This document shows, in pieces, positions 438-43,984 of a stretch of 64,000 nucleotides of DNA. The notes under the pieces are model-generated. The model ran no database searches, had not been told where the DNA came from, and saw only the letters and a list, made by a program, of their open reading frames with translations. The stretch comes from Candidatus Woesearchaeota archaeon (GTDB lineage: Archaea > Nanobdellota > Nanobdellia > CAYMVK01 > CAYYFB01). The translations under genes were made by a program, and so were the position numbers. Every line of letters starts with the position of its first letter. Position 1 is the stretch's first letter. Location: positions 42,283 to 106,282 of the forward strand of contig CAYYFB010000002.1 of the NCBI GenBank assembly GCA_964471255.1, read 5' to 3'.

Positions 438-1572
438 AGAATTTAGAGAAAAAGTTATAGAAATAAAAGATCACTTAAGAAATTATTCTGAAGCCTTGGT
501 TGTTTTCCATGATGATGCAGATGGGTTATGTTCTGGAGCAATAATTAAGGAAACACTGGAGCGGGCTGGAATAAATGCAAAAATGGTTTGTTTAGAAAAA
601 ACATATCCATTCGCGCTCCAGAAAATCCATTCAGGGGAGGGAGGATTAATATTTTATTGTGACATTGGATCCGCTCATGCGGATTGGATTGGAAATTTCA
701 ACCGCTCCAGAAATCTAGTAATTATTCTAGATCATCATGATCCCACAGCTACTAAGGATCCAAAGGTTATAGATCTTAACCTAGAATATTGGGGATATAA
801 AGGAGAATCGGATTTTTCTGGAGCGGTAATTTGTTATCTTTTTTCAAAAATAATTTCGCCGGCTAATAAGGACCTATCTTATTTAGGGGTAATAGGGGCT
901 AGTGAATTGCCTGGAGGGTTTGTTGGATTTAATAAAGAAGTTTTAAAGGAAGCTAAAGAATTAGGTCTAATTACCCAGGATCTTTACATAAAAAAATTAG
1001 GAATGGATGTTAAGGAAGTTTTTTCTGTTTTGCAGGTTTTGGGGGCTGTGGGATATTACCAAGGCGGTCCAGAAATAGGAATAAAATTGATTCTGGAGGG
1101 GCCAAAAGAGTCTTATCTAAATTTTGCAAAAGAACTTAGGGAAAAAAGGAAAAAGCTTAATAAAATCTTACTAGGCAAATTAAGAGCTGGAGAGTTGAAA
1201 CAGGGAAAAATTATTCAATGGTTTGACGCTAAAGATTTATACAAAGGAATGGGTTCAAAAGTAATTGGCCAATTTTGCTCGTTTCTCTCTTACCAAAGAC
1301 TTGTCAATCCAAGGAAATATATACTAGGATTCATGAATCTTGAGGGATATTTGCCAGGGATTGGTAAGTTTGAAGAAAAGTATTCTAAGTTCTCTGTAAG
1401 AGTCCCAGTGTTTTTGAGGAAGCTTATTGAAGCTGGTAAAGCAAAAGATTGTGTCGAATTAGGAAAAGCAAGCTATAAATATGGTGGATTTATAGATGGT
1501 CACAAATTTGCAGCCAGCGGGATAGTAAAGAGAGAATTAATAGAAGCTTTTACAGAAGAAGTAGATAAATAG
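427..1572 (+). CDS. DHH-family phosphoesterase (RecJ-like)
   Basis: It has an N-terminal HDDADGLCSG motif, an ILDHHD (DHH) motif and a C-terminal GGFIDGHKFAASG (DHHA1-like) motif. Confidence 0.65.
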   Translation: MLPKEFREKVIEIKDHLRNYSEALVVFHDDADGLCSGAIIKETLERAGINAKMVCLEKTYPFALQKIHSGEGGLIFYCDIGSAHADWIGNFNRSRNLVIILDHHDPTATKDPKVIDLNLEYWGYKGESDFSGAVICYLFSKIISPANKDLSYLGVIGASELPGGFVGFNKEVLKEAKELGLITQDLYIKKLGMDVKEVFSVLQVLGAVGYYQGGPEIGIKLILEGPKESYLNFAKELREKRKKLNKILLGKLRAGELKQGKIIQWFDAKDLYKGMGSKVIGQFCSFLSYQRLVNPRKYILGFMNLEGYLPGIGKFEEKYSKFSVRVPVFLRKLIEAGKAKDCVELGKASYKYGGFIDGHKFAASGIVKRELIEAFTEEVDK

Positions 1573-1586
1573 CTCTGGAGCGGCCC

Positions 1587-3208: not shown

Positions 3209-5308
3209 ATGGGAGTACTACCAGATACTTCTGCAGTAATAGAGGGGGTTATATCTGATTTACTAAGAAAGGGAAAAATAAGGGGGCCAATAGTTATCCA
3301 TAGGGCTGTTGTTTCTGAGCTAAATCATCAGGCCAATCAAGGAAAAATAACTGGGATGCTTGGACTAGAGGAAATAAAAGAAATAAGGAAAATAGGAAAA
3401 ACACTAGGGGTAAAAGTAGAGATAGTTGGAGATTATCCTACTAAAAGAGAAATAGAACTTGCGAAAATGGGGGAGATAGATTTGCTCCTAATTGAATATG
3501 CTTTTAATAATAATCTTACTCTTATAACTTCCGATACAGTTCAAGCTAAAACAGCTGAGGCTATGGGGGTTAGGGTCTTCTATATAGAGCCAAAAGTAAT
3601 AAGAACGCTCGAATTTGAAAAGTATTTTGATGAGGAAACAATGAGTGTGCATCTAAAAGAAAATACTTACCCAACTGCTAAAAAAGGAACTCCAAAGAAG
3701 TGGAGGTTTGTTAAAATTTCCGATGAGATTATAAGTAAAGAGTATTTAGAAAAACTGTCCTATGATATAATAGAATTCGCAAAACAGGACCCCCTTTCTT
3801 TCGTAGAGATTGATAGGAAAACAACCACCATAGTTCAGCTTAGAAGCTATCGTATAATTATATGTAGACCCCCCTTCTCTAGCGGTTGGGAAATAACTAT
3901 TGTTAGACCAATCAAAAAACTTTCATTGCAGGATTATAATCTTCCTAGAAAACTGTTGGAAAGATTGGAGAAGAAAGCAGAAGGAATATTAATAGCTGGG
4001 CCTCCTGGAGCGGGAAAATGTGTTACTGGGGATACCCTCATACTTACTGAGCTAGGAAAAATACCAGCAGCAGATTTATATCAGATGGTAAAAAATGGAA
4101 AATCAATTAGAGTTATATCTGTAAGGATGAATAGAATAGAAAAACAAAAAATAAAAAAAGCCTTTTCAAGAAAAGCCAAGATTATAATAAAAATAACGAC
4201 ATCAGGGGGAAGGACTATCAAAGTAACTCCTGCTCATCCTTTATTACTAGGAAAATCTTCGGGAGTCGGTTGGTATAGAGCATCTCAAGCAAATGAAGGA
4301 GATATGATTGCTACATTCGGAGAGGATGAGTTTATTCCTGCCCACCCTTTGATAGCAAATCTTGTTGGAAATACCGGTGGGAAGTTTATTGAAAAATCAT
4401 TTCTTAGATCTAAGCTCGAAGAGATGCCTTTAAAAGATCTTGTAAAAAATAAGGACAAACTGCTTCTTTTAAATAGTCTCATTAGATGGGAGACTATAAA
4501 GAAAATAGAAAGATATGAAACTGAGGAGTTTGTTTACGATTTTGAGTGTGAAAGAGTTCATAATTTCATAGCCAACGGGGTAATTATTCATAACTCTACA
4601 TTTGCCCAAGCCTTGGCAGAATTTTATGCATCAAAAGGAAAAATAGTCAAAACTGTAGAATCCCCAAGAGATTTAAGTCTTCCAGCAGAAATAACACAGT
4701 ATTCAAAAGATTATGGAGATTCAAAAGAGATTCATGATATTTTACTCCTCTCCAGGCCTGACTATACAATATTTGATGAAATGAGAGATGATGATGATTT
4801 TAAGTTGTATATTGACATGAGACTTGCGGGTGTAGGAATGGTAGGCGTGATACATGCTTCCTCCCCTATAGATGCTATTCAAAGATTTATAAGAAGAGCT
4901 GAATTAGGACAAATCCCAAGTATAATAGATACCACAATTTTCATAGAAGGAGGGGAAGTAAGTAAAGTTTATTCTCTCAATTTAACTGTAAAATTGCCAA
5001 CCGGCCTGAAAGATAGGGAACTAACACGACCAGTAATAGAGGTCAGAAACTTTCTTACCAATGAGCTAGAATACGAAATCTACAAATTTGGAGAAGAAAC
5101 TGTTGTTGTTCCAGTACGCAGGTTAAAATCAGAGGCACTATGGAGATTAATGGAAGAATTTGGAATAAAGGAATGGGAAGAAAGAAATGGAAGGATAATT
5201 ATAAAAGTAAATAGAGATGAACTAAAAAGAGTAAGGAAGAGTTTAAGACGCCTCTCCAGAATTCTTAAGAAAAGATTTAAAAGAGAGATAATAGTGGAGG
5301 TAGTATAA
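3209..5308 (+). CDS. PIN-domain + P-loop ATPase + C-terminal KH-like protein (PilT-family, COG1855-type), interrupted by an intein
   Basis: The N-terminus is PIN-like. The Walker A GPPGAGK is followed directly by an intein, and the extein resumes with STFAQ, restoring GPPGAGKST. A Walker B-like IFDEMRD follows. Confidence 0.75.
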   Translation: MGVLPDTSAVIEGVISDLLRKGKIRGPIVIHRAVVSELNHQANQGKITGMLGLEEIKEIRKIGKTLGVKVEIVGDYPTKREIELAKMGEIDLLLIEYAFNNNLTLITSDTVQAKTAEAMGVRVFYIEPKVIRTLEFEKYFDEETMSVHLKENTYPTAKKGTPKKWRFVKISDEIISKEYLEKLSYDIIEFAKQDPLSFVEIDRKTTTIVQLRSYRIIICRPPFSSGWEITIVRPIKKLSLQDYNLPRKLLERLEKKAEGILIAGPPGAGKCVTGDTLILTELGKIPAADLYQMVKNGKSIRVISVRMNRIEKQKIKKAFSRKAKIIIKITTSGGRTIKVTPAHPLLLGKSSGVGWYRASQANEGDMIATFGEDEFIPAHPLIANLVGNTGGKFIEKSFLRSKLEEMPLKDLVKNKDKLLLLNSLIRWETIKKIERYETEEFVYDFECERVHNFIANGVIIHNSTFAQALAEFYASKGKIVKTVESPRDLSLPAEITQYSKDYGDSKEIHDILLLSRPDYTIFDEMRDDDDFKLYIDMRLAGVGMVGVIHASSPIDAIQRFIRRAELGQIPSIIDTTIFIEGGEVSKVYSLNLTVKLPTGLKDRELTRPVIEVRNFLTNELEYEIYKFGEETVVVPVRRLKSEALWRLMEEFGIKEWEERNGRIIIKVNRDELKRVRKSLRRLSRILKKRFKREIIVEVV
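4019..4594 (+). mobile_element. Mini-intein (192 aa) inserted in the P-loop of the PIN/KH ATPase
   Basis: Block A is CVTGDTLI, block B is TPAHPLL (TxxH), block F is VYDFECERVHNFIANG, and block G is VIIHN followed by +1 Ser. It is in frame with both exteins. Confidence 0.8.
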
Positions 5309-5895
5309 TGGAAGAAGAACTCTTAGTCCCCTTGGAAAAATATTTGCTAAGTGGAATCCATATAGGCACCAAAATCAAAACAAAATTTACTGAGCCATTC
5401 ATATTTAGAATAAGACATGACGGTCTCACTATTTTAAATATTGAGGAAATTGATAGGAGATTAAGGATAGCTGCCAATTTTTTATCCAGGTTCGAGGCTT
5501 CTGAGATTGCAGTGGTAGGAAGGAGAATGAGTGCAAGAAAGCCAATTCTAATGTTCTGTAAAGCTACTGGAGCGGTTCCTTTTGTGGATAGATACCTTCC
5601 TGGCACTTTTACTAATCCTGAATATGAATGGTACTTTAATCCATCTGTAGTTCTCATCAATGATCCTTGGGTAGATAGAGTAGCTCTTAATGATGCTTTT
5701 AAAGCTGGGATCCCAATAGTGGCCCTTGTAGCTACTAGTAATGTTCTTTGTAAGGTAGATTTAGCTATTCCATGTAATAATAGAGGGAGGAGGTCTCTTG
5801 CTCTTATATACTGGATTTTAGCTCGGGAGTATCTAAAGAGAAGAGGAATCACAGAGGAATTCACTATTCCCGTAGAAGAATTTATTACAAAATAA
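5308..5895 (+). CDS. rps2: 30S ribosomal protein uS2
   Basis: The sequence LLSGIHIGTKIKTKF...RHDGLTILNIEEIDRRLRIAANFL is typical of archaeal S2. Confidence 0.85.
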   Translation: MEEELLVPLEKYLLSGIHIGTKIKTKFTEPFIFRIRHDGLTILNIEEIDRRLRIAANFLSRFEASEIAVVGRRMSARKPILMFCKATGAVPFVDRYLPGTFTNPEYEWYFNPSVVLINDPWVDRVALNDAFKAGIPIVALVATSNVLCKVDLAIPCNNRGRRSLALIYWILAREYLKRRGITEEFTIPVEEFITK

Positions 5896-9767: not shown

Positions 9768-10865
9768 ATGACAATTTACTTAGTGAGATATAGTGAAATC
9801 TATTTAAAATCAGTAAGAACAAGAAAAAGACTCTTAAATTTGCTAATAACAGACATTCTCAGAAGATGCAAAGAACGAATTCAAAAAATTCAGCTAGATA
9901 AGGGAAGGATAATAATAGAAGGAAAGGAAATTTCAGAGATCCTTAAAAAAGTACCAGGAATTTTCTCTTTCAGTGAGGCAATAAGGGTAAAAAATTGGAA
10001 AGAAGTTCCTGAGGCTGTTTTGAAGTATCTGAAAGGGAAGAAAACCTTTGCTGTCAGAGTAAAGAAAAGTTTAAAGATGGAAAAAAGTAGCTTGGACATT
10101 GCTGCTGAGATTGGAGAGAAAATTTTAGAACTGGCTCCTGAGCTGCGTGTTAACTTAGATAATCCAGACATAGAAATAAATGTAGAAATAAGAAAGAGTG
10201 GAACTTACGTTTTTTTCGAGAAAATACCTGGCTTAGGAGGTCTTCCTTTAGAAAGTGAGGGAAGAGTCGTTTCATTGGTTTCTGGTGGGACAGATTCTTC
10301 TGTTGCAAGTGTTTTAGTGCTAAAAAGAGGATGTTTGCCTATTCTTCTCCACGGAGAAATGAAAAAATTCTGGAGCGGGGATGCTTATGAAAGATTCTAT
10401 AAGTTTGTAGAATATTTTTCTGAATTCTCTCCAGATTCTCCCGTTTACTCCTTTAATCTAGAAGAACTCCACGAAAAGTTCAGGCTTAATAATAGTCTAC
10501 GCTGTTTCTTCTGTAAAGCATGTATGTATAAAGCTGGAGAGATCCTTTGCAAAAAAACAGGGGCAAAGGCGATAGTAACAGGAGAATCTCTAGGACAAGT
10601 TGCTACCCAAACGCTCGAAGCATTGTATTTCCTCTCCAGAACAGTTTCTATTCCTGTTTTCAGGCCTGTTCTTTGCTGGAGTAAGCTTGAGATAGAATCT
10701 TTAGCAAAAAATCTTAACTTATATCGAATTACCGGAAAGAATGTGGGAAAATGTTCACTTCTACCGACCTTCCCTCGCACGACTCTTTCCAAAAATGAAT
10801 TTATTAGACTAAAAAAAGAAATAAAGAGAATTGAGAGAAATATTAGATTTAAAAAGATTTACTAA
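9768..10865 (+). CDS. thiI: tRNA 4-thiouridine synthase ThiI-like (THUMP + PP-loop)
   Basis: The PP-loop [13 protein letters not shown] is preceded by a THUMP-like N-terminal half. Confidence 0.75.
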
Positions 10866-13499: not shown

Positions 13500-16400
13500 A
13501 TGGGAAATACAGAAATAAAAAAGGCTATTCTTAATGATTACTTCAACCTGATCGAAAAAGAGGCATTTAAAGCATATAAAATTGCCGAAGCTGCCAGAAG
13601 TAAAGGATTCGATCCCACCGAAAAAGTCGAGATAGAAATAGCTAACAATGCTGCTGAACGGGTTCAGAAGCTTGTTTCGTTTAGGGTACCTTCTCTTGCT
13701 GGCACTGATCTCTCTGAAAGAATAAGAAAATATGAGGAAAAGTATGGCTGGCTAGATTGGAGAGTAAGCCTTAAAATAGCTGAAGACGTAGCTTTTGGCG
13801 AGTTTTGTGACTGGAAAAATGAAGTAGAAGGCATTGATGCCGGAATAAGAACAGGGCTTGCCTATATAACTTTGGGGGTTGTTTCCGCTCCTATAGAGGG
13901 AATAATAGGAGTAAAAATAAAAAGAAGGATGGATCGGGGTAATTACCTAGCCATATATTATGGCGGACCTATCAGAACTGCTGGTGGCACTGCCAGCGCT
14001 TTTTCAGTATTAATTGCAGATTATCTAAGGAAAAAATTTGGAATTTCAGAATATGATCCAACCGAAGATGAAATCCAGCGTTATATTATCGAAATAGAAA
14101 TGTATCATTCTTCACAGAGGCTTCAGTATAAACCCGCTCCAGAGGAGATAAAGTACCTTGTAACCCACATCCCTATTGAAGTAACTGGAGACGGAACTTT
14201 AGAAAAAGAGGTCCTTGCAAAGAAAGACTTACCACGTGTAGAAACAAATCTAGTAAGAGGGGGAATGTGTCTAGTATTAGGTGAGGGGCTAGCTCAAAAA
14301 CTAAAAAAATTTAAAAAAATTGAAAAGTGGGCAAAGGATTGGGGGCTTGAGCATTGGGTTAAAATTTCAAAAGAATTTTCCGAGCTACAAAAGAAAATAC
14401 ACTCTGGAGTGGAGAATACAAGTAGTGGTATTGCTCCTAATTACAGATACCTAGAAGAACTGGTAACAGGGCGGCCAATCCTTTCCCTTCCTATGAAAGT
14501 AGGTGGATTTAGAATTAGGTATGGGAGAGCGAGAAACACAGGACTTGCAGCAGTAGGGGTTCATCCAGCCACGATGGAAATTTTAGGGTTCTTAGGAATA
14601 GGGACACAAATTGCAATAGAAAGACCGGGAAAGGCAGCTGCAGTTTCACCCGTAGATACTATTGAGGGGCCTATTGTCAAACTAAAAGATGGATCCGTGG
14701 TTAGAGTGGAATCCTTAGCGTTTGCGAGAAAAATAAAAAGTGAGATAAAGGAGGTTCTCTTTCTGGGAGATATTTTAATAGCATTTGGTGAATTCCTAAG
14801 AAATGGCCATATTCTTATTCCTTCCGGATATGTAGAAGAATGGTGGGCCCAGGAGGTAAGACGGGCATTAAAAGAAAAGAAAATAGATGAGAATCTAAAA
14901 GAAAAAATTAAAAAGATCCTAAGAAACCCACTTAGAAACAAACCAGATGCAAAATTAGCTTTAGAGATTTCGAAAGAATTACAGGTCCCTCTTCATCCAA
15001 AGTACACATACTTCTGGGAAAATATCTCCTCTTCCGATATTATTTACCTTTTTGAGAAATTAAAAAAAGGTTCGTGGGAGGGAGATGTTCTACGCCTAAA
15101 ATATGACAAAAAATTAAAAAAGATACTTGAGAAAATCTGTATTCCACATAGAGTGAATGATAGTGAAATAATAATAGAAGAGGATTCTATAATACTAAAA
15201 GAATTCTTGGATTATTATCTTAAAAAGGAAGAAATAAAAGGAAAGGATGGGCTTGAGGCTTTAAAAAGTTTTGTAAAAATTCCCTTAAGAAAAAAGAGTG
15301 GCATATACTTAGGAGCAAGAATAGGAAGACCTGAGAAGTCAGCTTTAAGAAAATTAAAGGGAAGGCCTCACATGCTTTTCCCTGTAGGAAGCGAAGGGGG
15401 GAGAATGAGGAATTTTATGGAAGCTGTAAAGCAAGGTTCCATAACAGGAGAGTTTCCTATGTTTTTTTGCCGAAAATGTTCCAGATGGACTATATATCCA
15501 AAGTGTGAGAAATGCAACAGTAGAACAATAAGATATTACACATGTAGAATTTGTGGAAAAAAGGTAAGAAGCACAGTTCATTGTGGATATAATTGTCTTG
15601 TAACCGAAAAAAGGAAAATAAATCCAGGGGAATATCTTTCAATAGCTCTCAAAAACTTGGGATTAGAAAGCCCTTCCCTATTAAAAGGAGTAAAAGGAAT
15701 GAGCTCGTTGGAAAAGATACCCGAAAGGATAGAGAAAGGAATTCTTAGAGCATTTCATAAACTCTATGTCAATAAGGACGGAACCATAAGATTTGACGCA
15801 ATAGAATTGCCTCTTACTCATTTTAGACCCAAAGAAATAGGGGTTAGTGTAGAAAAACTCAGAGAGCTAGGATACAAGTTTGATATATATGGGAAGCCTT
15901 TAGTTTCGGAAGATCAAATAGTAGAGCTATTTCCTCAGGATATTATATTGCCCGACCCAAATGTAAGGGGTAAAGAGGAAAAAAGTGCAGCCGAGGTGTT
16001 TTTCCGAGTAGCAAATTTCATAGATGACTTATTGGAAAAATTATATGGCCTTCCACGCTATTACAATCTAAGGAGAAAAGAAGACTTAATTGGACATCTT
16101 TGCATAGCTCTTGCTCCTCACACCTCTGCTGGGACTGTTTGTAGAATTATTGGTTTCTCAAAAACACAAACAATAATTGCTCATCCATACCTCCATGCTG
16201 CTGAGAGGCGCAATTGCGATGGAGATGAGTTGGGTCTTATTCTTCTTTTAGATGGTCTGCTTAACTTTTCTAGAAAATTTCTCCCAAAAAAGAGGGGAGC
16301 TACTCAAGACGCTCCCTTAGTAATCTGTACTAAAATAGATCCAAGATATGTAGATGATGAAGTCTATAACATGGAAGTTGTAGATTCGTATCCTCTGGAA

Positions 16401-17583: not shown

Positions 17584-18512
17584 TGTTTTTCTACATAATA
17601 GTTGGTATAGATGTCGGAATTTGGACTGGAATTGCAATTTCAGACTTAAAAGGAAATATTTCAAAAATTATGAGTCTAAAACACGCCTCTCCAGATGACA
17701 TTGTTAGGATTATAGAAAAGGAAGGAACCCCTATTCTCTTTTGTATAGACGTGAGCAAAATACCTCAAAAAGTAAAAACCATATCCAGAAAGTTTAATGC
17801 AAAGGTTTTTGCTCCAGAAAAGGATCTTTCAAGAGAGGAGAAGGAAAAGTTGGTTAAGGGATATAAATTTAAAACTGATCATGAAAGGGACGCCTTAGCT
17901 GCCATAAAATACTTCTTTAAACAAAAAGGAAACTGGCTAGAAAAGATAGAGAAGGATTGTAAGAAATATTTTGATTTATTTGTAGATGAAATTAAAAGGA
18001 AAGTAATAATAGAAGGAAAAAGAAGCATTGAGGATACTATAAAGGAAGTATTATTTGAACATGATAAAAAACTTAGAGAACTCAGTATTGAAATATTAAA
18101 GTTAAGAGGGAGGGTCCATTACCTAGAAGAAAAGCTTAAAGAAAAGGAGAGACCTAGAATCATAAAAGAAAGTAGTAAGGAAATAGAGAAACTCAAAGAA
18201 ATTATTAGGAAGTATAGAAAGTATATAAGGAAGAAGGAATTCTTCTTTAAGAATATTTCAGAACTGTTAGCGAATAAGGATTATATCCCTTGCAATGCTA
18301 GGATTTTTCTGGAGCGGCTGGACAAAGTAAATGAGGATGTTATTATTGCGTTAAAAGAAATATCTCCCAAAGAGGTTGTCTATAGGAAGGGCAATTTGAA
18401 AGAGGCTGAGAAACTTTTAAAAGCTGGTATTAACATTAGGAAAGAAAAATTAACTCCTGAGGATGTAATAGAAATATTGAAGGGAAAGCCCCCGTCGTCT
18501 AGCCAGGACTAG
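17580..18512 (+). CDS. DUF460-like RNase H-fold (RuvC/YqgF-like) putative nuclease with a coiled-coil tail
   Basis: It contains IVGIDVGIWTGIAISDLKG...ILFCIDVS...HERDALAAIKY. The last ~25 nt overlap tRNA-Glu on the same strand. Confidence 0.55.
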   Translation: MMFFYIIVGIDVGIWTGIAISDLKGNISKIMSLKHASPDDIVRIIEKEGTPILFCIDVSKIPQKVKTISRKFNAKVFAPEKDLSREEKEKLVKGYKFKTDHERDALAAIKYFFKQKGNWLEKIEKDCKKYFDLFVDEIKRKVIIEGKRSIEDTIKEVLFEHDKKLRELSIEILKLRGRVHYLEEKLKEKERPRIIKESSKEIEKLKEIIRKYRKYIRKKEFFFKNISELLANKDYIPCNARIFLERLDKVNEDVIIALKEISPKEVVYRKGNLKEAEKLLKAGINIRKEKLTPEDVIEILKGKPPSSSQD

Positions 18513-23915: not shown

Positions 23916-24812
23916 TTTTTCATTAATGAATCTCTCAAATTCTTCTTTCTTGCAAGAAGCTCCACAGATAAACTTATCTGCTGCTCCATAATAGAGGATT
24001 AGTTCATCTTTGAACTCGACCAAGCCTGGAGCAAATATAACCCAATTAACCAATCCATAGCATTCATACCATTCCTTTGGATAAAGCAGAGGCTTTTCAG
24101 ACCTTGCTAGGATATTAAGGTCTTTATTAATGATTAGCCAGCCTGGAGCATAGATTTTCTTAAGCGGATGATTTGAAGAGTTATAAATTAGGAGATACTT
24201 TCCATTTCCTAAGCTTACTGGAGCGGGTCCAGTCTCGACTAACCATCCATCAAATTTTTTGCTCCTTGGTTTTAAATATATCCTTTCTATTTTCCATTCA
24301 ATAAGATCTTCTGAGGTTGCTAGATAAGTAAATGTCTTTCCCCAAGGTTTTTCACTTTCCATGCAAAGCATGCAATAGAGCCCATTTACCTTCCAAGGGA
24401 TCAAGAGTCCAGCTTTATAACCTGGTAAAACTAATCTTAATTTTTCCCATTCAATTAAATCGTCAGAAAATGCTATTCCTATCCTTGTCGTTTTGCCATC
24501 ATAGGCTGTAAAAGTCATCCAATATTTTCCTTCAAATCTTACAACTCTAGGATCTTCTACTCCCTTGCTTTCCTCCCAAGAAGTTGGAATTAAGATAGGA
24601 TTGTTTTCATACCTTTTTAAGTCCCTACCATCTTCGCTTATTGCTAGGCAAATAGTTGATTTCCCTAATCCAAGTGCTCTATAGAAGATATAGATCTTAT
24701 TATCCTTTACTAGCGCTGTTGGGTTAAAAACAGAGTCTTTTTCTTCTAGCCTTTCTGGAGTGGGATAAAGCAAAGGATTATTTTCGAATCTTTTAAACAA
24801 ACCTTCCTCCAT
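23898..24812 (-). CDS. GH130/DUF377-like beta-propeller glycosidase or phosphorylase
   Basis: It contains NPLLYPT...SVFNPTALV...IYIFYRA...EDPRVV...YYGAAD. Confidence 0.6.
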   Translation of the reverse strand: MEEGLFKRFENNPLLYPTPERLEEKDSVFNPTALVKDNKIYIFYRALGLGKSTICLAISEDGRDLKRYENNPILIPTSWEESKGVEDPRVVRFEGKYWMTFTAYDGKTTRIGIAFSDDLIEWEKLRLVLPGYKAGLLIPWKVNGLYCMLCMESEKPWGKTFTYLATSEDLIEWKIERIYLKPRSKKFDGWLVETGPAPVSLGNGKYLLIYNSSNHPLKKIYAPGWLIINKDLNILARSEKPLLYPKEWYECYGLVNWVIFAPGLVEFKDELILYYGAADKFICGASCKKEEFERFINEKLETLR

Positions 24813-24863: not shown

Positions 24864-25949
24864 TTAAGAAACAATGAATTGTCTGCAAGTCTCTATTCCT
24901 TTAATTATCAGACATAGTTCATAAACTCCGGATCCTAATAAGTCACAATTAAGGGCCCTTGGCTGGATGTAGATGTCGGTTATGTTATTTGCTTCTAATT
25001 CAATCGGTCCAAAGTAAGAATAGTTATGAATGAGCTTTCCGGAGCAGGAGTAATCTCTAGAAAGACCTTTGAGCTTGAAATAACTTCCATTAATGGGAGC
25101 TTTTTCTTTAGAAGTTAGAGACACTTTAACTGGGCCTAAGTAAATTTGTTTTACTTCCTCTTCGCTTAAAGCTCTGTTATAAATGCGAATTTCATCAATA
25201 ATCGAATTGTCTTTTCCCATAACAACTGCTCGTGTATCCCATTTCATCGTTGAAGCGTTGTGGACGGAACATTTTTCATCATTTAAATAAAACATCATAT
25301 TGTTATTTGAGTCGTACACAAGTGCAAGATGATACCAAATATCTAGTTTGATACTAGGGTGTGCTAGATATACTCTCCCATACTTTTGGTCATTTACGAG
25401 AACATAAAATGCTTCAGAATAATAGTCACGTAAAAAGCTAAAGCCTGTAATTGTCCAACCTCCTTTACAGAGAATATCACGATATGAAGGTGGTCTAGTA
25501 ATTGATTTATACCAAAACATAACAGTGTAGCTCTGTGGTCTTAAACTTGTCGAATCGTTCACTTCAACATAATCATCCACTCCATCAAAGCTTAATGCAT
25601 ATCCATACTTCCCCTCAACCCATTTTGGTGGTGTGTCCCCATCTGCATTTGTAGAGTTAGCATCTAATAAAACTCCATCATTTCCATTCCCGCTCCAGTC
25701 CCTAGTTACATTCCCCTCTCCTTCTTCAAAAGGAAGGAAAAGGACTAATCCCTTCTCTTCATTTATTCCATATACATCCAGTACTTCCACTTTGGGTGTT
25801 ATCCCTTCTAGACTTTTTTCTATAGTCTTCTTCCCAGTCGCCGCAGTCTTTCCTATAATGGAGGAAAATGTATAGAAGGTAACAACTGAAATTGAGATTA
25901 TTATTACAAGAATTAATATTGAAGAAATAACCGGGGATATTGCTTTCAT
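24864..25949 (-). CDS. Archaeal type IV pilin-like (class III signal peptide) LamG-domain protein
   Basis: The N-terminus MKAISPVISSILILVIIISISV is followed by a LamG-like core ending in IDEIRIYNRALSEEEV and a Cys-containing tail paralogous to 3..437. Confidence 0.65.
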   Translation of the reverse strand: MKAISPVISSILILVIIISISVVTFYTFSSIIGKTAATGKKTIEKSLEGITPKVEVLDVYGINEEKGLVLFLPFEEGEGNVTRDWSGNGNDGVLLDANSTNADGDTPPKWVEGKYGYALSFDGVDDYVEVNDSTSLRPQSYTVMFWYKSITRPPSYRDILCKGGWTITGFSFLRDYYSEAFYVLVNDQKYGRVYLAHPSIKLDIWYHLALVYDSNNNMMFYLNDEKCSVHNASTMKWDTRAVVMGKDNSIIDEIRIYNRALSEEEVKQIYLGPVKVSLTSKEKAPINGSYFKLKGLSRDYSCSGKLIHNYSYFGPIELEANNITDIYIQPRALNCDLLGSGVYELCLIIKGIETCRQFIVS

Positions 25950-26022: not shown

Positions 26023-26442
26023 ATGTCTGGAGCAGCTCTTGCAATTATCACCGCAATTGTTTGGGGAATTGGAGGAACTTTAGATAAGGTTATTTTGCAA
26101 ACACTTAAAAGCCCAACTGGAGCGCTTCTTGCAGCAACTTGGAGATCTATAATTGTTTCCTTGGTTTTTTTATTTGTAGCATGGTTTAAAAGAATTTCCC
26201 TATCAAAATTTCCAGCAATTTTTATATATCTTGTGATTATTGATGGAATCCTAATAGCCTTGGGTGTTCTTTTTTATTTCAAATCCATAACACTGATTGG
26301 TGCAGGAAGAACAGCGGCCATCTCATCAACCTATCCTTTAATAACAGTAGTCCTAGCGTTTATCCTCTTAAAAGAAAAGATAACAGTAAAACACATATTA
26401 GGATCTATCTTGGCTGTAATTGGAGTAATTCTTCTTTCATAG
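26023..26442 (+). CDS. EamA/DMT-type small membrane transporter (single EamA domain)
   Basis: It is 139 aa with four to five TM segments and an EamA-like end (ILGSILAVIGVILL). Confidence 0.55.
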   Translation: MSGAALAIITAIVWGIGGTLDKVILQTLKSPTGALLAATWRSIIVSLVFLFVAWFKRISLSKFPAIFIYLVIIDGILIALGVLFYFKSITLIGAGRTAAISSTYPLITVVLAFILLKEKITVKHILGSILAVIGVILLS

Positions 26443-26443: not shown

Positions 26444-27877
26444 TTATTCTTTGGGAAGATAGATGCTATGGGGCTTTAGTTCTGTGGTCCCAACTTGAGT
26501 TACAAATGCAAATTTAGCTTTTTTCCAAAGCTCTTTAATATTTTTTGCACCAACATATCCCATAGAGGCTTTTAAACCTGCAGAAAATTCTTTTACAACA
26601 TCACTAACACTTCCTCTATAAGGAACCCATCCCTCTACTCCCTCTGGAATATCTTTTGCTGGCATAGAATATCTATCAAGCGCCATCCTCTTTCTTCTTG
26701 CCCTTAAACTCCCCATTCCATAGTATTCCTTATAATACTTGCCTTCTAGGGCAATTAGCCTCCCGGGACTTTCTTTGCATCCAGCAAAGATATTTCCCAT
26801 CATTACGCAGCTCGCTCCAGCTGCAAGGGCCAAAGCAACATCCCCAGGATTTTTTACTCCTCCATCAGCAATTATGGGAATATTTACTCCATAATCTAGG
26901 CAAGCATCAGCAACCTGGGCAACAGCAAATAGGGTTGGGGCTCCTACTTTAGTAACAATTGAAGTAGTACAAATTGATCCGCTTCCTATTCCAACTCTAA
27001 ATCCAGATATCTCTTCTAGTTTTGTAATGCAATCTTCAGCAGCTTCATAGGTCCCTATGTTCCCAACTATTAATTCAGAACCTATTTCTTTTAGCAGCCT
27101 CTTTGTTGCTTCAATGCAGTTCCTATTATGAAAATGCGCAACATCAGTTACTAGTATATCTACCCATTTGTCTAGAGCCTTGGCCCTAGGAAGGTCAAAA
27201 GGAGAAATAGCTGCAGCACATAATAATCTTCCCTCTTCATCTCTAATAGCATTCGGATATTTCCCCCTACCTTCTATATCTTTAACAGTTATCAGCCCAA
27301 GCAATCTTCTATTTTCATCTACTATTGGTAATTTTTCAATCCTATGCTTATGAAGGATCTCTTTTGCCTCTTCAATTGTTATCCCTTCTGGAGCGGTTAT
27401 AACATCTTTTGTCATTACGTTTTCCACTTTAAGTTCTGGAGCGGCAAATCTAACATCCCTCCAGGTAATTATTCCAACAAGCCTTTCTCCTTCTAATACC
27501 GGTAATCCATGTATGTTATGCTTTTCCATTAGCTGAATTGCATCCTTAACTGTAGCATCCGGATTTGTAGTAATTACGTCCCTTATTATCCATGCCTCAG
27601 CCCTCTTTACTTTCTTTGCCATCTCAACTTCTTCTTCTATAGTGCAATTCCTATGTAGAACACCTAGACCTCCTTCTCTTGCTAAAGCAATTGCCATCTC
27701 AGCTTCAGTAACTGTATCCATAGGCGCAGAAACAAAAGGTATGTTTAGTTTGTGCTTTGGAGTGACCCAAGTCGAAATATCAACTTCCCTTGGCTCTACT
27801 TCTGTATAACCCGGAAGCAATATAACATCATTGAAAGTTAGGGCCGCTCCAGAATCCTTCAGTTTCTCCCTAAACAT
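26444..27877 (-). CDS. guaB: Inosine-5'-monophosphate dehydrogenase
   Basis: It contains LTFNDVILLPG, a CBS pair, the catalytic loop GIGSGSICTT and GGVKNPGD. Confidence 0.9.
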   Translation of the reverse strand: MFREKLKDSGAALTFNDVILLPGYTEVEPREVDISTWVTPKHKLNIPFVSAPMDTVTEAEMAIALAREGGLGVLHRNCTIEEEVEMAKKVKRAEAWIIRDVITTNPDATVKDAIQLMEKHNIHGLPVLEGERLVGIITWRDVRFAAPELKVENVMTKDVITAPEGITIEEAKEILHKHRIEKLPIVDENRRLLGLITVKDIEGRGKYPNAIRDEEGRLLCAAAISPFDLPRAKALDKWVDILVTDVAHFHNRNCIEATKRLLKEIGSELIVGNIGTYEAAEDCITKLEEISGFRVGIGSGSICTTSIVTKVGAPTLFAVAQVADACLDYGVNIPIIADGGVKNPGDVALALAAGASCVMMGNIFAGCKESPGRLIALEGKYYKEYYGMGSLRARRKRMALDRYSMPAKDIPEGVEGWVPYRGSVSDVVKEFSAGLKASMGYVGAKNIKELWKKAKFAFVTQVGTTELKPHSIYLPKE

Positions 27878-28142
27878 ATAGATTTCAGTTTATCTCCTAT
27901 ATTAAGATTCAACTGAAATAAAAAATTGATATTGGATTGCCGCTCCAGAACCCTTAATAGTACTCTTAGAATGTCAAAACCTTTATCCAAACAAATTCCT
28001 CTTTTCTCTGAGATTCCTATTTTTCTAATTTCTTTTATGCTTATTATTCATGTTAACTCTTCTCGATTGTTTGAAGATTAAAATTAAACTTCCTGTTTGA
28101 TAAATCGGAAATAAGAATTTAAGCCAAATCTACAACATTTTT

Positions 28143-28676
28143 ATGATACTTGGGATCGATGAGCTTCTTAGGCTTGTAAGGGAAAAAGAGCTTGTGAAAC
28201 ACCTTTCCGAAAGGGAAATTCAGAGACCTGAAGGAGCAGGATTTGATATAAGAGTTGGAGAGATATATGAGATTGAAGGGGAGGGATTCTTAGGAGTAGA
28301 AAAAAGAAAAACACCTACTCCAAAGCTAGTAGCTCAATATGGAAAAGATAAAGAATATATTCTCAAACCCGGGGCATATGTCCTTGTTAGGACTATAGAA
28401 GAAGTAAATATTCCTGAAAATCTGGTTATGCTAACCTTTCCAAGAAGTACATTACAAAGATGTGGTATACTGCTTTTGGCAACACAAACCGCTCCAGGAT
28501 ATTCAGGAAAGCTAGTATTTGGGATGAAAAATTTAGGTCCTTGCCCATTCAGAATGGAATTGGGCGCGAGAATAGCCCATGTAATCTTCTTGGAAGTAAA
28601 AGGAAAAACCAGTCTATACAGAGGGCAGTGGAAGGGAGGAAGAGTGGCCACTCCAGAACTGGAGCGGCAAGTATAG
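28143..28676 (+). CDS. dcd: dCTP deaminase/dUTPase-family protein
   Basis: It contains GAGFDIRVGE, PGYSGKLVFGMKNLG and ARIAHVIF. Confidence 0.7.
   Translation: MILGIDELLRLVREKELVKHLSEREIQRPEGAGFDIRVGEIYEIEGEGFLGVEKRKTPTPKLVAQYGKDKEYILKPGAYVLVRTIEEVNIPENLVMLTFPRSTLQRCGILLLATQTAPGYSGKLVFGMKNLGPCPFRMELGARIAHVIFLEVKGKTSLYRGQWKGGRVATPELERQV
28649..28667. repeat. Head-to-head motif pair at the 3' end of dcd
   Basis: CACTCCAGAACTGGAGCGG is an imperfect palindrome ending 9 nt before the dcd stop. Confidence 0.7.
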
Positions 28677-33712: not shown

Positions 33713-34574
33713 CAGGGTTCTTAAAGTCTTAGAGAAAAAGGGAGTGGAAATTTTACCTGTAAGAGAGGCTTGGGAAAAAATAAAATCTATTAGAAAATAT
33801 TTTAAAAAACCTCCTAAATGTGGATATTACGTAAAGGTTAAAAAATCAATTCAATTTCCTTTGGTTCTTTGTATGTTAATTTCAAAAGAAAGATTTAAGC
33901 AAGAATTGGATAATTTGTTGATAGTTGAGGAAAATGTAGAGTGCAATATTTATGCTACTTGTTCTTCTGTGTTTACTGATCTTTGCGCATTGCATAAAGC
34001 TGGGGGAAAGATTATTCTAAAGAAAGGGAGCAAAGTAAACTATTTCCATTTCCATAGATGGGGAAGCTATGACAAAGTTCTAACCAACTATCAGATAATT
34101 CTGGAGCGGGGATCATCTCTCAGTTATCTTTACAAATGTACTTTGGCTCCCCAAAATCTTGAATTAAAGACCTCAATTACGGCTGGAGAAGGATCAAATG
34201 TTCATACAAGGGTAATCTTAGATGCTAGGGGAGGAATATCTAAAGCAATGGAGCACATACTCCTCAAAAAAAGAGCATCGGCAATTTCTGAGTATAGGGT
34301 TGTGGGGAGAGATGGTGCAAATGTGGAAATAGAAGGAAAAATAGAAGCATTAGAGAATTCCAAAGGACATTTAGATTGTAGAGGACTTATTTTAGATAGT
34401 GATTCGAAAATCTCTTTGTCTCCTGTCCTCGTTAACAGAAGTAAGGATGCTATACTTACCCATGAAGCGTCTATTGGGAAAATTTTTGATGAGCAAATAC
34501 TCTACTTGAAAGCAAGAGGTTTAAGTGAAGAAGAAGCCATAAATCTTATTGTCACTGGCTTCTTACATGCATAA
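33666..34574 (+). CDS. sufB: SufB/SufD-family Fe-S assembly protein
   Basis: The C-terminus is THEASIGKIFDEQILYLKARGLSEEEAINLIVTGF, and the gene follows sufC. Confidence 0.7.
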   Translation: MVMKNVKSANYVQINDRVLKVLEKKGVEILPVREAWEKIKSIRKYFKKPPKCGYYVKVKKSIQFPLVLCMLISKERFKQELDNLLIVEENVECNIYATCSSVFTDLCALHKAGGKIILKKGSKVNYFHFHRWGSYDKVLTNYQIILERGSSLSYLYKCTLAPQNLELKTSITAGEGSNVHTRVILDARGGISKAMEHILLKKRASAISEYRVVGRDGANVEIEGKIEALENSKGHLDCRGLILDSDSKISLSPVLVNRSKDAILTHEASIGKIFDEQILYLKARGLSEEEAINLIVTGFLHA

Positions 34575-36096: not shown

Positions 36097-36146
36097 CTGC
36101 TCCAGAACTTCTCTCGGAAATTTCAACCCCATACACTCTGGAGCGG
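36097..36146. repeat. Inverted pair of the motif in the spacer between convergent genes
   Basis: CTGCTCCAGAA (36097-36107) and CTCTGGAGCGG (36136-36146) form an 8-bp stem around a ~30-nt loop. Confidence 0.7.
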
Positions 36147-36237: not shown

Positions 36238-37059
36238 TTAAGGAATCAATTGCACTTTCCCTGTAAGAATGTCTTCAAGTCTAATGATTGGGTACTGGAG
36301 CGGCCGTCTTGTAAAGGTTAGGTTTATGGGAATGCCTGTCTCTAATGTAAGTCTATCGAATTCTCTCTTTAGTTCTTGAAGTACTGCAGTATCGGAAGAA
36401 CGATAACTAACTACTATGTCAATATCCGAAATGAAGTGCCCTTCTATATAAATGAAAAATCTCCCAGTTCTCACGCTAGATCCATTTGCACCAACATCTT
36501 TGAGAGATATATCATAATCGGAGCAAATTTTCCCTATTTTTCTAAAGGCGGGAAGAATATGTTTTGGGATAGCCTCTTTTTTCTTTTTTAGCCAATACTC
36601 TTCCTTTTTCTTGAGTTCATCCAAAGTAGGAGCAATAAGATCCTTTCTAGCTCTAGTAGCACGTAAAGCTCCCTTCCTTGATCTTGCTTCAACTCTTGTG
36701 TAAAACTCTTCCTCTCCAGTGCTCACTTCCAAGAAATATATTACAGTGCAAGGAGGATAAAATTTATCTTCAATTATCCTGCCTCTAGATAATATTAACT
36801 CGTGAAGAGAAATTGAAGTTCTACGTATTTCTGGGAGATCAGGTAAACCAAACAATTTGCGAACGCGATAGGGTGCAAGTTGGATCATTGCAATATACCA
36901 TTCTTTTGGGGTTTGGGTACTATATCCTAGCATTTGGGCAGCAAAGACCGGTAAGAAATCACAGGAAGCATCATTATGTAATATCTCTAGAAGTCTTGAA
37001 AGGGAATTTATGGCTTTTGGAAAGTTGTTTACCCTAAGTGCTAACATAAGAAAAAACAT
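36238..37059 (-). CDS. Uncharacterised protein with a C-terminal minimal nucleotidyltransferase (Pol-beta superfamily) motif
   Basis: GANGSSVRTGRF...SDIDIVV matches GSxxRG...DxD. The N-terminal ~170 aa are unrecognised. Confidence 0.45.
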   Translation of the reverse strand: MFFLMLALRVNNFPKAINSLSRLLEILHNDASCDFLPVFAAQMLGYSTQTPKEWYIAMIQLAPYRVRKLFGLPDLPEIRRTSISLHELILSRGRIIEDKFYPPCTVIYFLEVSTGEEEFYTRVEARSRKGALRATRARKDLIAPTLDELKKKEEYWLKKKKEAIPKHILPAFRKIGKICSDYDISLKDVGANGSSVRTGRFFIYIEGHFISDIDIVVSYRSSDTAVLQELKREFDRLTLETGIPINLTFTRRPLQYPIIRLEDILTGKVQLIP

Positions 37060-37106: not shown

Positions 37107-38294
37107 CTAAAAATAGCTTGGTAAAGGTTTTATTCTTAGGTTTTTAAGTAAGATGCTTTTCCCTATTACTTTATTAAATTTCTTTTTTAGCTCTTTAACT
37201 ACAGCCTCTCCAATCATTTTTGGCCTCTTAGAGAGCATATCTCTAATACATTCTCTCATTTGCCATATTCCGACTGGAGCATAGAACTCTTTCTTAACCT
37301 CTCTTATTATAAGAATAGAAGCTTGCCTTTTTCTCCTTTCAAGGGCCTCCAGAACTGCTAGCCTACCTGCGTAGAAAGCCCCTCCAGTAGAGGAAGCATA
37401 AGATGTCCTTCCCCAGTAGGGTTCATAATCCGAAAAAACTATTGGATTATTAGAATTTAAATTCCAAATACTCCCAGGATATTTTATTTCTATTAGCTCA
37501 TATTGATATTTGGAGGGGAAAAGTGCAATTGTGTATTTATTCCCTATATATTCTCCAGTATATAACTCCATATCATCTATCTCTGGGTATTCCCTAATTC
37601 TTTGCAAAAGAAAATCTCCAATATGTTTATCAACAGCTGTAATTGACCATCTGGTTGGAACAAATTTCCTTTGGATCTTTAGCCCTAACAAGCCGGCAGA
37701 AAATATCCTCTGAATCCTGCTAACTGGAATCCCTTTTTTATAAAGAATTATAACTGCCTCCTTTGCTTTCATTTCATCATCTGCTATTACTCTTTCTACT
37801 TTGTTCTCTATTTTTGGCTCATCCAAAAGCTCAATTAACTCATACTCTGCAGGATTTCCAGTGGGGGGTATTCTGGCCCCAAAGTAAAATCTAAATCTTG
37901 GGTTTTTCTTTAATTTAGTAAAGAGATAAATTTCCCTTTTCGAAGCTGCAGCCTCCTGAATTTCATTTATTCCCTCTCTAATATGTGTTTTAGATCTAGC
38001 ATAAACGAGCGATCCTCTCAATTCGAGTATTTTCCTTATATTAAATTTCCTTTTATACCATAATTCTGGATATTCATATATTTCTGAATTAGATTCTGGA
38101 GCGATGAGTAAACCTGTCCATACTTTTGGATATCCAAATCTCCCAACAAAAATACCTGGAGGGGATGGTCCCTCTATTTCTTTCTTTTTTGTCAGGATTT
38201 TTCTCCAATGCTTTATTTTCTGTAATATAGGGCAAGGCCTCCCACACCAGCCCCTTCCTTTACATTTTGCACAAATGGGCTGCTCCAGTGCCAT
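37107..38294 (-). CDS. nreA: NreA-family DNA repair protein (archaeal Nre)
   Basis: It has the N-terminal Cys cluster CAKCKGRGWCGRPCPIL, with Nre-like length and layout. Confidence 0.65.
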   Translation of the reverse strand: MALEQPICAKCKGRGWCGRPCPILQKIKHWRKILTKKKEIEGPSPPGIFVGRFGYPKVWTGLLIAPESNSEIYEYPELWYKRKFNIRKILELRGSLVYARSKTHIREGINEIQEAAASKREIYLFTKLKKNPRFRFYFGARIPPTGNPAEYELIELLDEPKIENKVERVIADDEMKAKEAVIILYKKGIPVSRIQRIFSAGLLGLKIQRKFVPTRWSITAVDKHIGDFLLQRIREYPEIDDMELYTGEYIGNKYTIALFPSKYQYELIEIKYPGSIWNLNSNNPIVFSDYEPYWGRTSYASSTGGAFYAGRLAVLEALERRKRQASILIIREVKKEFYAPVGIWQMRECIRDMLSKRPKMIGEAVVKELKKKFNKVIGKSILLKNLRIKPLPSYF

Positions 38295-42596: not shown

Positions 42597-43984
42597 AGCA
42601 AATAGCTCATATCCTGATAGAGTCTATATACCTTTCCAGTTAATTCCTTTATTCCTTTTTCCATGTTTTCTATTATTTTCTCAGCGCGCTCCAGACTTAC
42701 CATCCTTTCATCCCTTTCTTCCTTTTTATTATAATCGTAATATTTTATTGAAATTTTTCCCTCTTTGGCCTCTTTTTCGCCAACAAAGATAATAATAGGA
42801 GGTTTTATTGTTGTTTGCATTTTTCTAATTAAGGATGCAATTCCGGTTTTATCTTGAAGAATTGAAGCAACTCTTATTTTTTTGCTTTTAAAGTTTTCCT
42901 CAATTCCCTTAACCTCCATTTCTATTTTCCTATCTATATCTTTCGCTCCAGTTTTTATCCCCACAACAGCCACCTGGAGCGGGGAAAGAGCAAAAGGTAA
43001 TCTTCCTTTACTATATTCCAAATAAGTTCCAAGAAATCTCTCTATTGATCCTAATATTGCCCTATGGATCATGTAAATTTGAATTTCCTTTTCAAATATC
43101 TCACTAATAAGATTGGGCAGCTTGAATCTTATTGGTAGATTAAAATCAAATTGGATAGTAAATAGTTGCCATTCTTTTTCTCCAAATCTCGCTATACCAT
43201 CTATCTTCGGACCATAAAATACAGCTTCCCCAACCCCTTCGTAATATTCAATCCCATATTTCCTTTCTATCTCCTGCGCCACTCCAGACATGAAATCCTG
43301 GATTATTTCCCAATCCTCCCTCTTCCCTGCATAATATTTTCCTAGTTCTGAAAAATCAGCAAAACTAAGTCTAAGCTTTAGATCAGAATCAATTATTGGT
43401 ATATGAAATATCTTTTCATAAATATTTACCACTTCATCTTCAAATATCCTTAGCATTTCCTTCTTTATTTCTTTCAACTCGATAAAAATGTGCCCATCAT
43501 CTTGAGTAAATTGTCTAACTCTAAATAATCCATGCAAGGACCCGCTTGGTTCAAATCTTGCTACTCTCCCTGGTTCAAATATCCTAAATGGGAGCTTTAT
43601 CTTCTGCCTATACTTCTGGAGCAGGTTAATAAATATTAGGATATGATGTGGGCAATTCATTGGTTTTATTGCAAATTCTTTCCCTTCTATCTCTAAAATA
43701 TACATATTTTCCTTGTAGAATTCTAAGTGTCCAGAAATCTTATATAATTCAGAAGAAACTATTGGAAAGGATTCCACTATTTTATAGCCTCTACTAAGAT
43801 GAAAATCGGTTAGAATATCAATCAATATTTTTCTAAAAATCCCTCCTCCGATGCTAAATAAAGGGATCCCTGAACCAAGTAAAGCCCCAAATGGCCTTTC
43901 AAGATTTGATGCTAAGCCTTCTGGCTTTACTATTAAGTCCAAATCATCTGCGAAATCAATATGGTCTTTTTGTCCGAACCTCAC
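42593..43984 (-). CDS. thrS: Threonine--tRNA ligase, catalytic core + anticodon-binding domain only (no N-terminal TGS/editing region)
   Basis: It contains FAIKPMNCPHH and RVRQFTQDDGHIF. It is 463 aa with a GTG start, and nothing ThrRS-like is in frame upstream. Confidence 0.8.
   Translation of the reverse strand: MRFGQKDHIDFADDLDLIVKPEGLASNLERPFGALLGSGIPLFSIGGGIFRKILIDILTDFHLSRGYKIVESFPIVSSELYKISGHLEFYKENMYILEIEGKEFAIKPMNCPHHILIFINLLQKYRQKIKLPFRIFEPGRVARFEPSGSLHGLFRVRQFTQDDGHIFIELKEIKKEMLRIFEDEVVNIYEKIFHIPIIDSDLKLRLSFADFSELGKYYAGKREDWEIIQDFMSGVAQEIERKYGIEYYEGVGEAVFYGPKIDGIARFGEKEWQLFTIQFDFNLPIRFKLPNLISEIFEKEIQIYMIHRAILGSIERFLGTYLEYSKGRLPFALSPLQVAVVGIKTGAKDIDRKIEMEVKGIEENFKSKKIRVASILQDKTGIASLIRKMQTTIKPPIIIFVGEKEAKEGKISIKYYDYNKKEERDERMVSLERAEKIIENMEKGIKELTGKVYRLYQDMSYLL

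Follow-up and report, generated by a model that had tools for sequence, protein, structure and literature searches.

A hyper-abundant octamer in a 64-kb archaeal chromosomal window resembles bacterial DNA uptake sequences

The 64-kb stretch of contig CAYYFB010000002.1 analysed here (the window) carries the octamer CTGGAGCG 36 times, against 0.34 copies expected from dinucleotide shuffles, an excess of approximately 100-fold. The word is a kind of genomic feature known from bacteria and is now found in a new domain of life; the function we infer for it is provisional. Our tentative reading is that of an uptake-sequence-like word, possibly kept by sequence-biased molecular drive.

Results

The genome data comprised the window and 5 kb upstream of it on locus L001 (69 kb in total). 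Expected counts of the word were obtained from dinucleotide shuffles and from a codon shuffle in which proteins and codon usage are preserved. The window is part of the ordinary core chromosome and encodes PolD DP2, ERCC4, MCM, RFC, TBP, TFIIB, ribosomal proteins, aminoacyl-tRNA synthetases, IMPDH and TIM. Its host reads as an uncultured Bathyarchaeia archaeon, as judged by the top IMPDH relatives, which come from Bathyarchaeia metagenome-assembled genomes (MAGs) and share 73% identity at most. The window sequence recurs unchanged in independent Logan contigs, and the word is therefore not an assembly artefact.

Abundance of the word

The window has a GC content of 35% and is strongly depleted in CpG (rho 0.41), so that a GC-rich, CpG-containing octamer is the opposite of what its composition predicts. 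When proteins and codon usage were preserved in the shuffle, 4.1 copies were expected, 3 of which are the fixed intergenic copies. Perfect copies occur at 0.56 per kb, rising to 1.7 per kb when single variants are included. Among 86 word-compatible peptides in the window 33 carry the word, against 1.07 expected from codon usage, and 8 of the 19 Leu-Glu-Arg tripeptides are written CTG-GAG-CGS. The codons required are rare: CTG accounts for 6% of Leu codons, CGN for 8% of Arg codons (2% each) and GCG for 9%.

The word also leaves its mark on protein composition. The tripeptides that it specifies are approximately doubled in the window proteins, with LER found 19 times (11.1 expected), [SPTA]GA 26 times (12.6 expected) and [SPTA]LQ 15 times (5.6 expected). 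As a separate observation on codon usage, 8 of the 48 CGG/CGC codons in the window sit in motif copies, and CGN arginine is otherwise almost unused.

Anatomy of the word

The reverse complement of CTGGAGCG is CGCTCCAG, and the word is thus non-palindromic. The motif is graded by position. The hexamer CTGGAG is invariant, preference for the CG at positions 7 and 8 is strong, and that for the two flanking bases on either side is weak. At position 7 or 8, single variants exceeded the codon-shuffle expectation 5-9 fold, the counts being 24 for CTGGAGCA, 18 for CTGGAGAG, 13 for CTGGAGGG and 9 for CTGGAGTG. CTGGAG with both following bases wrong occurred 36 times against a scaled estimate of ~30, which is the background level.

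Among the 36 perfect copies, T was found at -2 in 21 and at -1 in 21. Position +9 was G in 24, C in 9, A in 3 and T in none (p=1e-14), and position +10 was G in 17 (p=2e-5). The same flank preferences were repeated by 75 near-variant copies, which we treated as an independent set and which together with the perfect copies make up a family of 111. The preference at +9 also holds at a synonymous site: all eight Leu-Glu-Arg copies use CGG or CGC and none uses CGA or CGT (P=0.0013), two codons that are equally common elsewhere.

When ±60 nt around the 111 copies were examined, Bonferroni correction was passed only by -2, -1, +9, +10 and a stray -43, and no distal second motif block was present in that range, the borderline -43 aside. 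An earlier note on this DNA had proposed a functional unit longer than 8 nt, T-rich on its 5' side and G-rich on its 3' side. Such edges are real at -2, -1, +9 and +10, but they reach only 2 nt on each side, and no flank information lies farther out except at the stray position; the unit is approximately 12 nt and not 17. It can be written T-T-C-T-G-G-A-G-C-G-(G/C)-G. The borderline G excess in this upstream region, seen at -43 in 37/111 members of the family (p=1.4e-4) and at -42 in 14/36 perfect copies, is probably noise, because its register is inconsistent.

Strand and frame

Perfect copies were divided 23 plus to 13 minus (P=0.13) and the 111-copy family 62:49, both in a single 64-kb window. 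Genic copies lay in sense and antisense orientation in a ratio of 20:13 (P=0.30). A polarity test on 23/36, again confined to the one window, rejected a polarity of 85% (P=0.0015) and did not reject 75% (P=0.09). All six reading frames are used:

sense frame 0: LER, 8 copies
sense frame 1: xGA, 10 copies
sense frame 2: WSG, 2 copies
antisense: RSR, 1 copy
antisense: xLQ, 5 copies
antisense: APx, 7 copies
intergenic: no peptide, 3 copies

The 17-nt identities

The earlier note had drawn attention to three 17-mers, each shared by two copies in unrelated genes. All three pairs were found, and the frames and peptides given for them are correct:

810-826, plus strand: GGATTTTTCTGGAGCGG in the DHH gene, core 818-825, sense frame 1, DFSGAV
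18301-18317, plus strand: GGATTTTTCTGGAGCGG in the DUF460 gene, core 18309-18316, sense frame 0, IFLERL
10363-10382, plus strand: ThiI copy with two different 17-mers (AAAAATTCTGGAGCGGG at 10363-10379, AATTCTGGAGCGGGGAT at 10366-10382), core 10370-10377, sense frame 2, KFWSGD
34097-34113, plus strand: SufBD-like copy AATTCTGGAGCGGGGAT, core 34101-34108, frame 0, IILERGS
49307-49323, minus strand: TIM copy AAAAATTCTGGAGCGGG, core 49309-49316, sense frame 0, KILERAK

Three pairs sharing at least 17 contiguous bases compare with 0.14 under a column-shuffle null and 0.30 under a matched-context null drawn from genomic contexts with the same bases at -2, -1, +9 and +10 (P=0.006); the test is post hoc on a pattern picked by eye, and two of these pairs involve the same copy, 10370. 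With contiguity not required, the outer flanks (-12..-3 and +11..+20) of all 630 pairs were no more alike than those of context-matched genomic controls, with mean matches of 5.44 against 5.42 and a maximum of 13 against 12.5 (P 0.34-0.73). The three AATT...GG copies resemble the consensus and simply follow runs of A. The 17-mers are thus mostly explained as chance-level by-products of the word, the upper tail of similarity among the 36 CTGGAGCG copies, and the claim that they form a separate unit falls away. For the 17-mer question this negative outcome is the useful one: the strings indicate neither a longer element nor templated copying, and the unit is ~12 nt.

The statement that the 17-nt identities do not derive from shared protein constraint was borne out. 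A single flank has an ancestral, protein-constrained origin. On the left side of 810-826, GAT-TTT-TCT-GGA encodes Asp-Phe-Ser-Gly, which is present in 114-118 of 119 homologues and is written in the AT-rich codons that the window prefers; this flank is protein-constrained because D-F-S-G-A is invariant or nearly so in the 119 homologues. The rare GCG for the conserved Ala is the sole unusual codon there. No such origin was found for the copies in DUF460, ThiI and TIM, the DUF460 partner at 18301-18317 lying in a non-conserved C-terminal region, a window-specific insertion.

The GGAT(T)n-CTGGAGCG forms listed in the same note are present at 614-628 (minus) and 27845-27857 (minus), and a further form of this type, GGATAAAAA-CTGGAGCG, lies at 42944-42960 (minus). 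As a bipartite consensus, GGAT-Tn-CTGGAGCGG did not hold up: it precedes 4 of the 36 perfect copies (0.52 under the null, post hoc P=0.0013) but 1 of the 75 near variants, where ~1.1 is expected, and neither of the two copies in L001.

Origin of the copies and effect on proteins

Comparison with relatives, which the earlier note had suggested as a way to tell point substitutions from short insertions, was decided in favour of the former. No indels were found at the 8 motif sites aligned in IMPDH and DHH, nor at three sites aligned to solved structures. In IMPDH, compared with 160 orthologues, the window has SGA where orthologues have AEK or ADH, AAPE where they have AESS or ADNK, and TAPE where they have TGTE or TAGE. 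The fourth site reads AGA in the window and VGA in 126/160 orthologues, a change from Val to Ala. In IMPDH, 5/14 motif codons specify the residue found in most orthologues, against 332/463 codons in the remainder of the protein (Fisher P=0.006).

In the DHH gene, LER at 556-563 is conserved in 110/119 homologues. As LER and SGA are both conserved in this protein, the copies on these two peptides are pure synonymous recoding (LER to CTG-GAG-CGG). ALQ at 614-628 stands where homologues have VVE or VIE (n=119), and its three residues are lineage-specific. In TIM, archaeal structures show A-E-K/R at 49307-49323, and Ala is replaced by Leu in the window. For ThiI, two structures align across the site (window 10340-10390); these Protein Data Bank (PDB) homologues read PPFTSE and the window KKFWSG, and the change from Thr to Trp coincides with the motif. 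The word was thus very probably installed by point substitution, ignoring strand, gene and frame, against codon usage and CpG depletion and at some cost to proteins. A Glu to Gly change in ThiI also coincides with the motif, and the two ThiI changes may reflect a functional cost that the word imposes.

Taxonomic range

We compared the window with 2.06 Mb of related sequence, made up of 160 loci drawn from GTDB representatives and JGI metagenomes. CTGGAGCG was not enriched in these loci (67 copies against 90 expected), and no other 8-mer was over-represented to a comparable degree in any of them. The word therefore appears lineage-specific, as judged from these sequences. Synteny between the window and the related loci is not conserved.

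One related locus, L062 (CAYTHX010000005.1, a Nitrososphaeria MAG with 35% GC), has three copies of CTGGAGCG within 16 kb, where 0.2 would be expected (P=0.001, uncorrected). This was judged to be a chance occurrence, 160 loci having been tested and its flanks being non-consensus. Palindromic octamers are moderately over-represented in L072 (1-21425), L083 and L144: GGAGCTCC occurs 32 times against 4.6 (L072), CGTCGACG 10 times against 0.3 and ACCCGGGT 10 times against 0.37, which is reminiscent of HIP-type words or of methylation-site effects.

Viral contigs dense in the motif (CTGGAGCG-N10-40-CTGGAGCG) were, among the matches listed, mostly GC-rich contigs near the estimated chance level. 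An unrelated 13.7-kb viral contig of 54% GC (L207, IMGVR_UViG_3300031974_003504) carries TGGAGCG 29 times, 24 of them on one strand and in several frames, a strongly polar motif unlike the window word. Its 15 copies of CTGGAGCG compare with 1.2 expected. No relatives of this contig were found among 50,697 phage records.

Discussion

An uptake-sequence-like reading

For the pattern described above to arise, some process would have to favour word-carrying alleles systematically across about a thousand loci, which points to molecular drive over site-by-site selection. Only one drive of this type is well established, in which conspecific DNA is taken up and recombined preferentially if it carries an uptake sequence, namely the DNA uptake sequence (DUS) of Neisseriaceae and the uptake signal sequence (USS) of Pasteurellaceae. 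Where hyper-abundant words are understood, they report specific DNA-recognition machinery in the form of uptake receptors. By analogy, a putative DNA receptor would be strict for CTGGAG and lenient for the adjoining CG(S) and TT, and would influence which fragments of environmental DNA enter the cell and recombine.

The uptake-sequence density of H. influenzae and N. meningitidis, given their genome sizes, is similar to that of the window word. Like the window word, DUS (GCCGTCTGAA, extended to 12 nt) and USS (AAGTGCGGT with AT-rich flanks) have a strict core and weaker flanks, occur at ~0.5-1 copy per kb in both orientations and are genic in all frames. They too arise by point substitution, are lineage-specific and fall on less conserved residues, the last of these holding in the window for IMPDH only. 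The two bacterial genomes contain 1,471 and 1,892 uptake sequences, respectively (PMC2817400). The tripeptides that these sequences specify are likewise approximately doubled, for which the same paper served as our benchmark, and models of uptake bias work with graded motif classes (PMC1939737). We rank uptake drive first because this footprint is common to both: use of every frame, doubling of tripeptides, placement at poorly conserved residues (in IMPDH) and graded mismatch classes (PMC2817400, PMC1939737).

Several points weigh against such a drive. The host is archaeal, and the 64 kb and 5 kb read offer no competence or DNA-import genes and no receptor. In the literature searched, no archaeal uptake sequences were reported, and the octamer CTGGAGCG was not mentioned in such a context. 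Single mismatches at positions 1-6 were not enriched in the window (4 against ~6 expected), a core sharper than simple drive plus decay would predict and unlike that of DUS and USS. Enrichment at terminators and in intergenic regions, together with close inverted pairs, is typical of Neisseria DUS. The window shows neither: 3/36 copies are intergenic where 10% of the sequence is non-coding, and its close inverted pairs (42944/42974, 28649/28659 and 36098/36138) are not in excess over the general clumping. That clumping is strong, with a variance/mean of 2.6 in 2-kb bins (P<0.001), and includes a segment from 53.2 to 64 kb with no perfect copy and 9 near variants, again unlike DUS and USS. In DHH, which is more divergent than IMPDH, motif codons do not differ in conservation from the remainder of the protein (7/12 against 196/369 elsewhere). 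The window word further differs from DUS and USS in holding a CpG in a CpG-depleted genome of 35% GC, and no relative sharing the word or carrying a dialect of it was found. Indeed no close relative was found at all, the best amino-acid identities being at most 73% for IMPDH (genome and metagenome contigs) and 52-56% for DHH, which reached 56% at best in a collection of 5.8 billion proteins.

Alternative explanations

A different view is that the word is a self-marking or protein-binding site kept by selection, for Chi-like modulation of a nuclease, for discrimination between self and non-self or for chromosome organisation, and perhaps read through CTGGAG methylation in the manner of Type IIG or bacteriophage exclusion (BREX) systems. 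We consider this unlikely. Six invariant core positions with graded neighbours do look like a protein recognition site, and the copies clump in three ~1-kb clusters. Chi (GCTGGTGG in E. coli, AGCGG in B. subtilis, GAAGCGG in S. aureus) is likewise 8 nt, G-rich, non-palindromic and over-represented, and partly resembles the word in sequence (CTGG..., ...AGCGG). As a lead only, we take AGCGG/GAGCGG to resemble Gram-positive Chi and CTGGAGG to resemble a Chi variant of H. influenzae. However, Chi is strongly co-oriented with replication, largely codon-compatible and modestly enriched, whereas the window word has strands of 23:13, uses rare codons and is ~100-fold enriched. Its polarity is weak in the family as well (62:49), 85% being rejected and 75% not. 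RecBCD and AddAB are not known in archaea, and a Pfam scan covering part of the window genes revealed neither them nor FtsK. Site-by-site selection on ~1000 sites, altering conserved residues, would be hard to sustain. The methylation variant has a specific point in its favour, as CTGGAG, the Type IIG/BREX site (BpmI, GsuI) and m6A (N6-methyladenine) BREX methylation site of the archaeon Haloterrigena (PMC10609329), is identical to the invariant hexamer of the word. Yet the unit enriched in the window is an 8-12-mer, bare CTGGAG is at background, and the window encodes no such enzyme and no candidate methyltransferase or nuclease, its sole methyltransferase being a small-molecule enzyme of the UbiE/COQ5 type. 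We also know of no host in which restriction, BREX or methylation sites are enriched 100-fold; they are normally avoided or neutral.

Biased gene conversion would produce the word without uptake, if a nicking or mismatch endonuclease repaired near-cognate heteroduplexes toward it, in the manner of very short patch (VSP) repair or of the highly iterated palindrome (HIP1) of cyanobacteria. Such a process is also blind to strand and frame and yields a lineage-specific word. HIP1 (GCGATCGC) is an octamer of ~1 per kb, genic and in all frames, for which a methyltransferase link is suspected, and HIP-type palindromic 8-mers such as GGAGCTCC in L072 are moderately over-represented in some related Bathyarchaeia contigs. 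We nevertheless regard it as improbable. Unlike HIP1, the window word is not a palindrome; no precursor hexamer is depleted (ratios of 1.04 for CTAGAG, 1.02 for CTGAAG, 1.05 for TTGGAG and 1.01 for CTGGAA); and the deamination products CTGGAGCA and CTGGAGTG are enriched instead of depleted. Known VSP effects are below 2-fold and concern one position only. The suggestion in the earlier note that copies were written from a common template, whether as a longer mobile unit resembling a miniature inverted-repeat transposable element (MITE) or a repetitive extragenic palindromic (REP) sequence, or by short-patch copying between copies, deserves very little credence. The three pairs of at least 17 nt (P=0.006) and GGAT(T)n before 4/36 copies (P=0.0013) speak for it, both post hoc, but GGAT(T)n was not replicated in the 75 near variants or the 2 extra copies, and positional information ends at ±2 nt. 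Template copying is not supported, because outer flanks are unrelated, aligned sites lack indels relative to orthologues and the DHH flank is an invariant peptide; the extended flanks or terminal structure that MITE and REP elements share are absent here (5.44 against 5.42 under the null). Finally, frequent LER or xGA peptides in preferred codons might make the word as a by-product of protein sequence and codon usage. Conserved peptides do underlie some copies (the P-loop GPPGAGK, GxGxG motifs, and LER and SGA in DHH). With rare codons in use, 36 copies against 4.1 in the shuffle that preserves proteins and codons, six frames and intergenic sites occupied, and related genomes encoding the same proteins without the word, we give this artefact practically no weight.

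Implications of an uptake-type word

To our knowledge, only a few bacterial groups (Neisseriaceae, Pasteurellaceae and cyanobacteria) have well-characterised short, hyper-abundant words that prevail over codon usage and protein conservation. An equally strong word in Bathyarchaeia would provide a concrete way of approaching DNA exchange or self-recognition in this uncultured class of archaea. The fullest form of the uptake-sequence-like reading, which is doubtful, would make it the first archaeal uptake-type 'species tag': DNA carrying TT-CTGGAGCG-S-G would be preferentially imported or recombined, the word possibly being read via CTGGAG methylation, and the drive would fill ~40% of the synonymous opportunities and reshape proteins. 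If true, this would mean motif-specific natural transformation in an uncultured, globally abundant class of sediment archaea. The word could serve as pull-down bait, mark sequences for binning and for the detection of recent gene transfer, and help to predict a receptor or methyltransferase.

Copies along the window

Outside the 17-mer pairs, the copies are distributed as follows:

556-563, plus strand: perfect copy in the DHH gene, LER
614-628, minus strand: perfect copy in the DHH gene with GGATTTT upstream, antisense, ALQ
703-710, minus strand: perfect copy in the DHH gene, antisense, RSR
1575-1582, plus strand: intergenic perfect copy between convergent genes
4005-4012, plus strand: perfect copy in the P-loop GPPGAGK of the intein-containing gene
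5567-5574, plus strand: perfect copy in the ribosomal protein S2 gene, TGA
14135-14142, minus strand: perfect copy in the PolD DP2 gene, antisense, APE
24218-24225, plus strand: perfect copy in the GH130 gene, antisense
25691-25698, minus strand: perfect copy in the Laminin_G_3 gene, WSG
26117-26124, plus strand: perfect copy in the EamA gene, TGA
26813-26820, minus strand: perfect copy in IMPDH, AGA
27388-27395, plus strand: perfect copy in IMPDH, antisense, TAPE
27436-27443, plus strand: perfect copy in IMPDH, antisense, AAPE
27845-27857, minus strand: perfect copy in IMPDH with GGATT upstream, SGA
27941-27948, minus strand: intergenic perfect copy in a divergent promoter region
28490-28497, minus strand: perfect copy in the dCTP deaminase gene, antisense
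28649-28666: near-palindromic pair CACTCCAG-AA-CTGGAGCG at the 3' end of the dCTP deaminase gene, with the perfect copy at 28659-28666
36138-36145, plus strand: intergenic perfect copy between convergent genes, with an inverted near-variant at 36098
36295-36302, plus strand: antisense perfect copy in gene 36238-37059
38096-38103, plus strand: perfect copy in the Nre gene, antisense
42687-42694, minus strand: perfect copy in a class II aminoacyl-tRNA synthetase (aaRS) gene, LER
42944-42981: inverted perfect pair CGCTCCAG-N22-CTGGAGCG in the aaRS gene
44643-45357: cluster in the S-adenosylmethionine (SAM)-methyltransferase gene, with 6 perfect copies (44643, 44787, 44817, 44940 on the minus strand, 45002 and 45350) and 4 near variants
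49031-49038, plus strand: perfect copy in the TIM gene, antisense, CAPD
53114-53121, minus strand: perfect copy in the GlmS-like gene, antisense, the last in the window

Copies are crowded in the DHH gene, which has 8 perfect or near copies, and in the 1.3 kb from 27388 to 28666, where 7 perfect and 2 near copies fall in the 5' end of IMPDH and the dCTP deaminase gene. The densest cluster is the 927-bp UbiE/COQ5-type SAM-methyltransferase gene at 44501-45427 (Poisson P=1.8e-5; 1.2e-3 when corrected for 67 genes). Copies 44757, 44787 and 44817 in that gene are spaced exactly 30 nt apart, as are the members of the inverted pair 42944/42974; in the window, close direct-pair spacing was not significant beyond the general clumping.

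Further observations on the window

The stretch from 53200 to 64000 encodes the end of GlmS, SIS proteins, a second DHH/DHHA1 gene, RFC, MCM and TBP. Under uniform placement a gap in perfect copies of this size has an estimated chance of ~0.07, and it adds to the clumping.

Scans of the copies for tRNA genes and Rfam families found no RNA genes at the word. A tRNA of 103 nt at 57114-57216 matched Rfam, was not reported by ARAGORN and is probably intron-containing; it is free of the motif. The other tRNAs of the window (Glu-CTC, Ala-CGC and Pro-CGG) are all intron-less and likewise lack the motif. The gene at 3209-5308 encodes a 699-aa P-loop protein with an intein, as indicated by a PF14890 match on the identical gene of L001.

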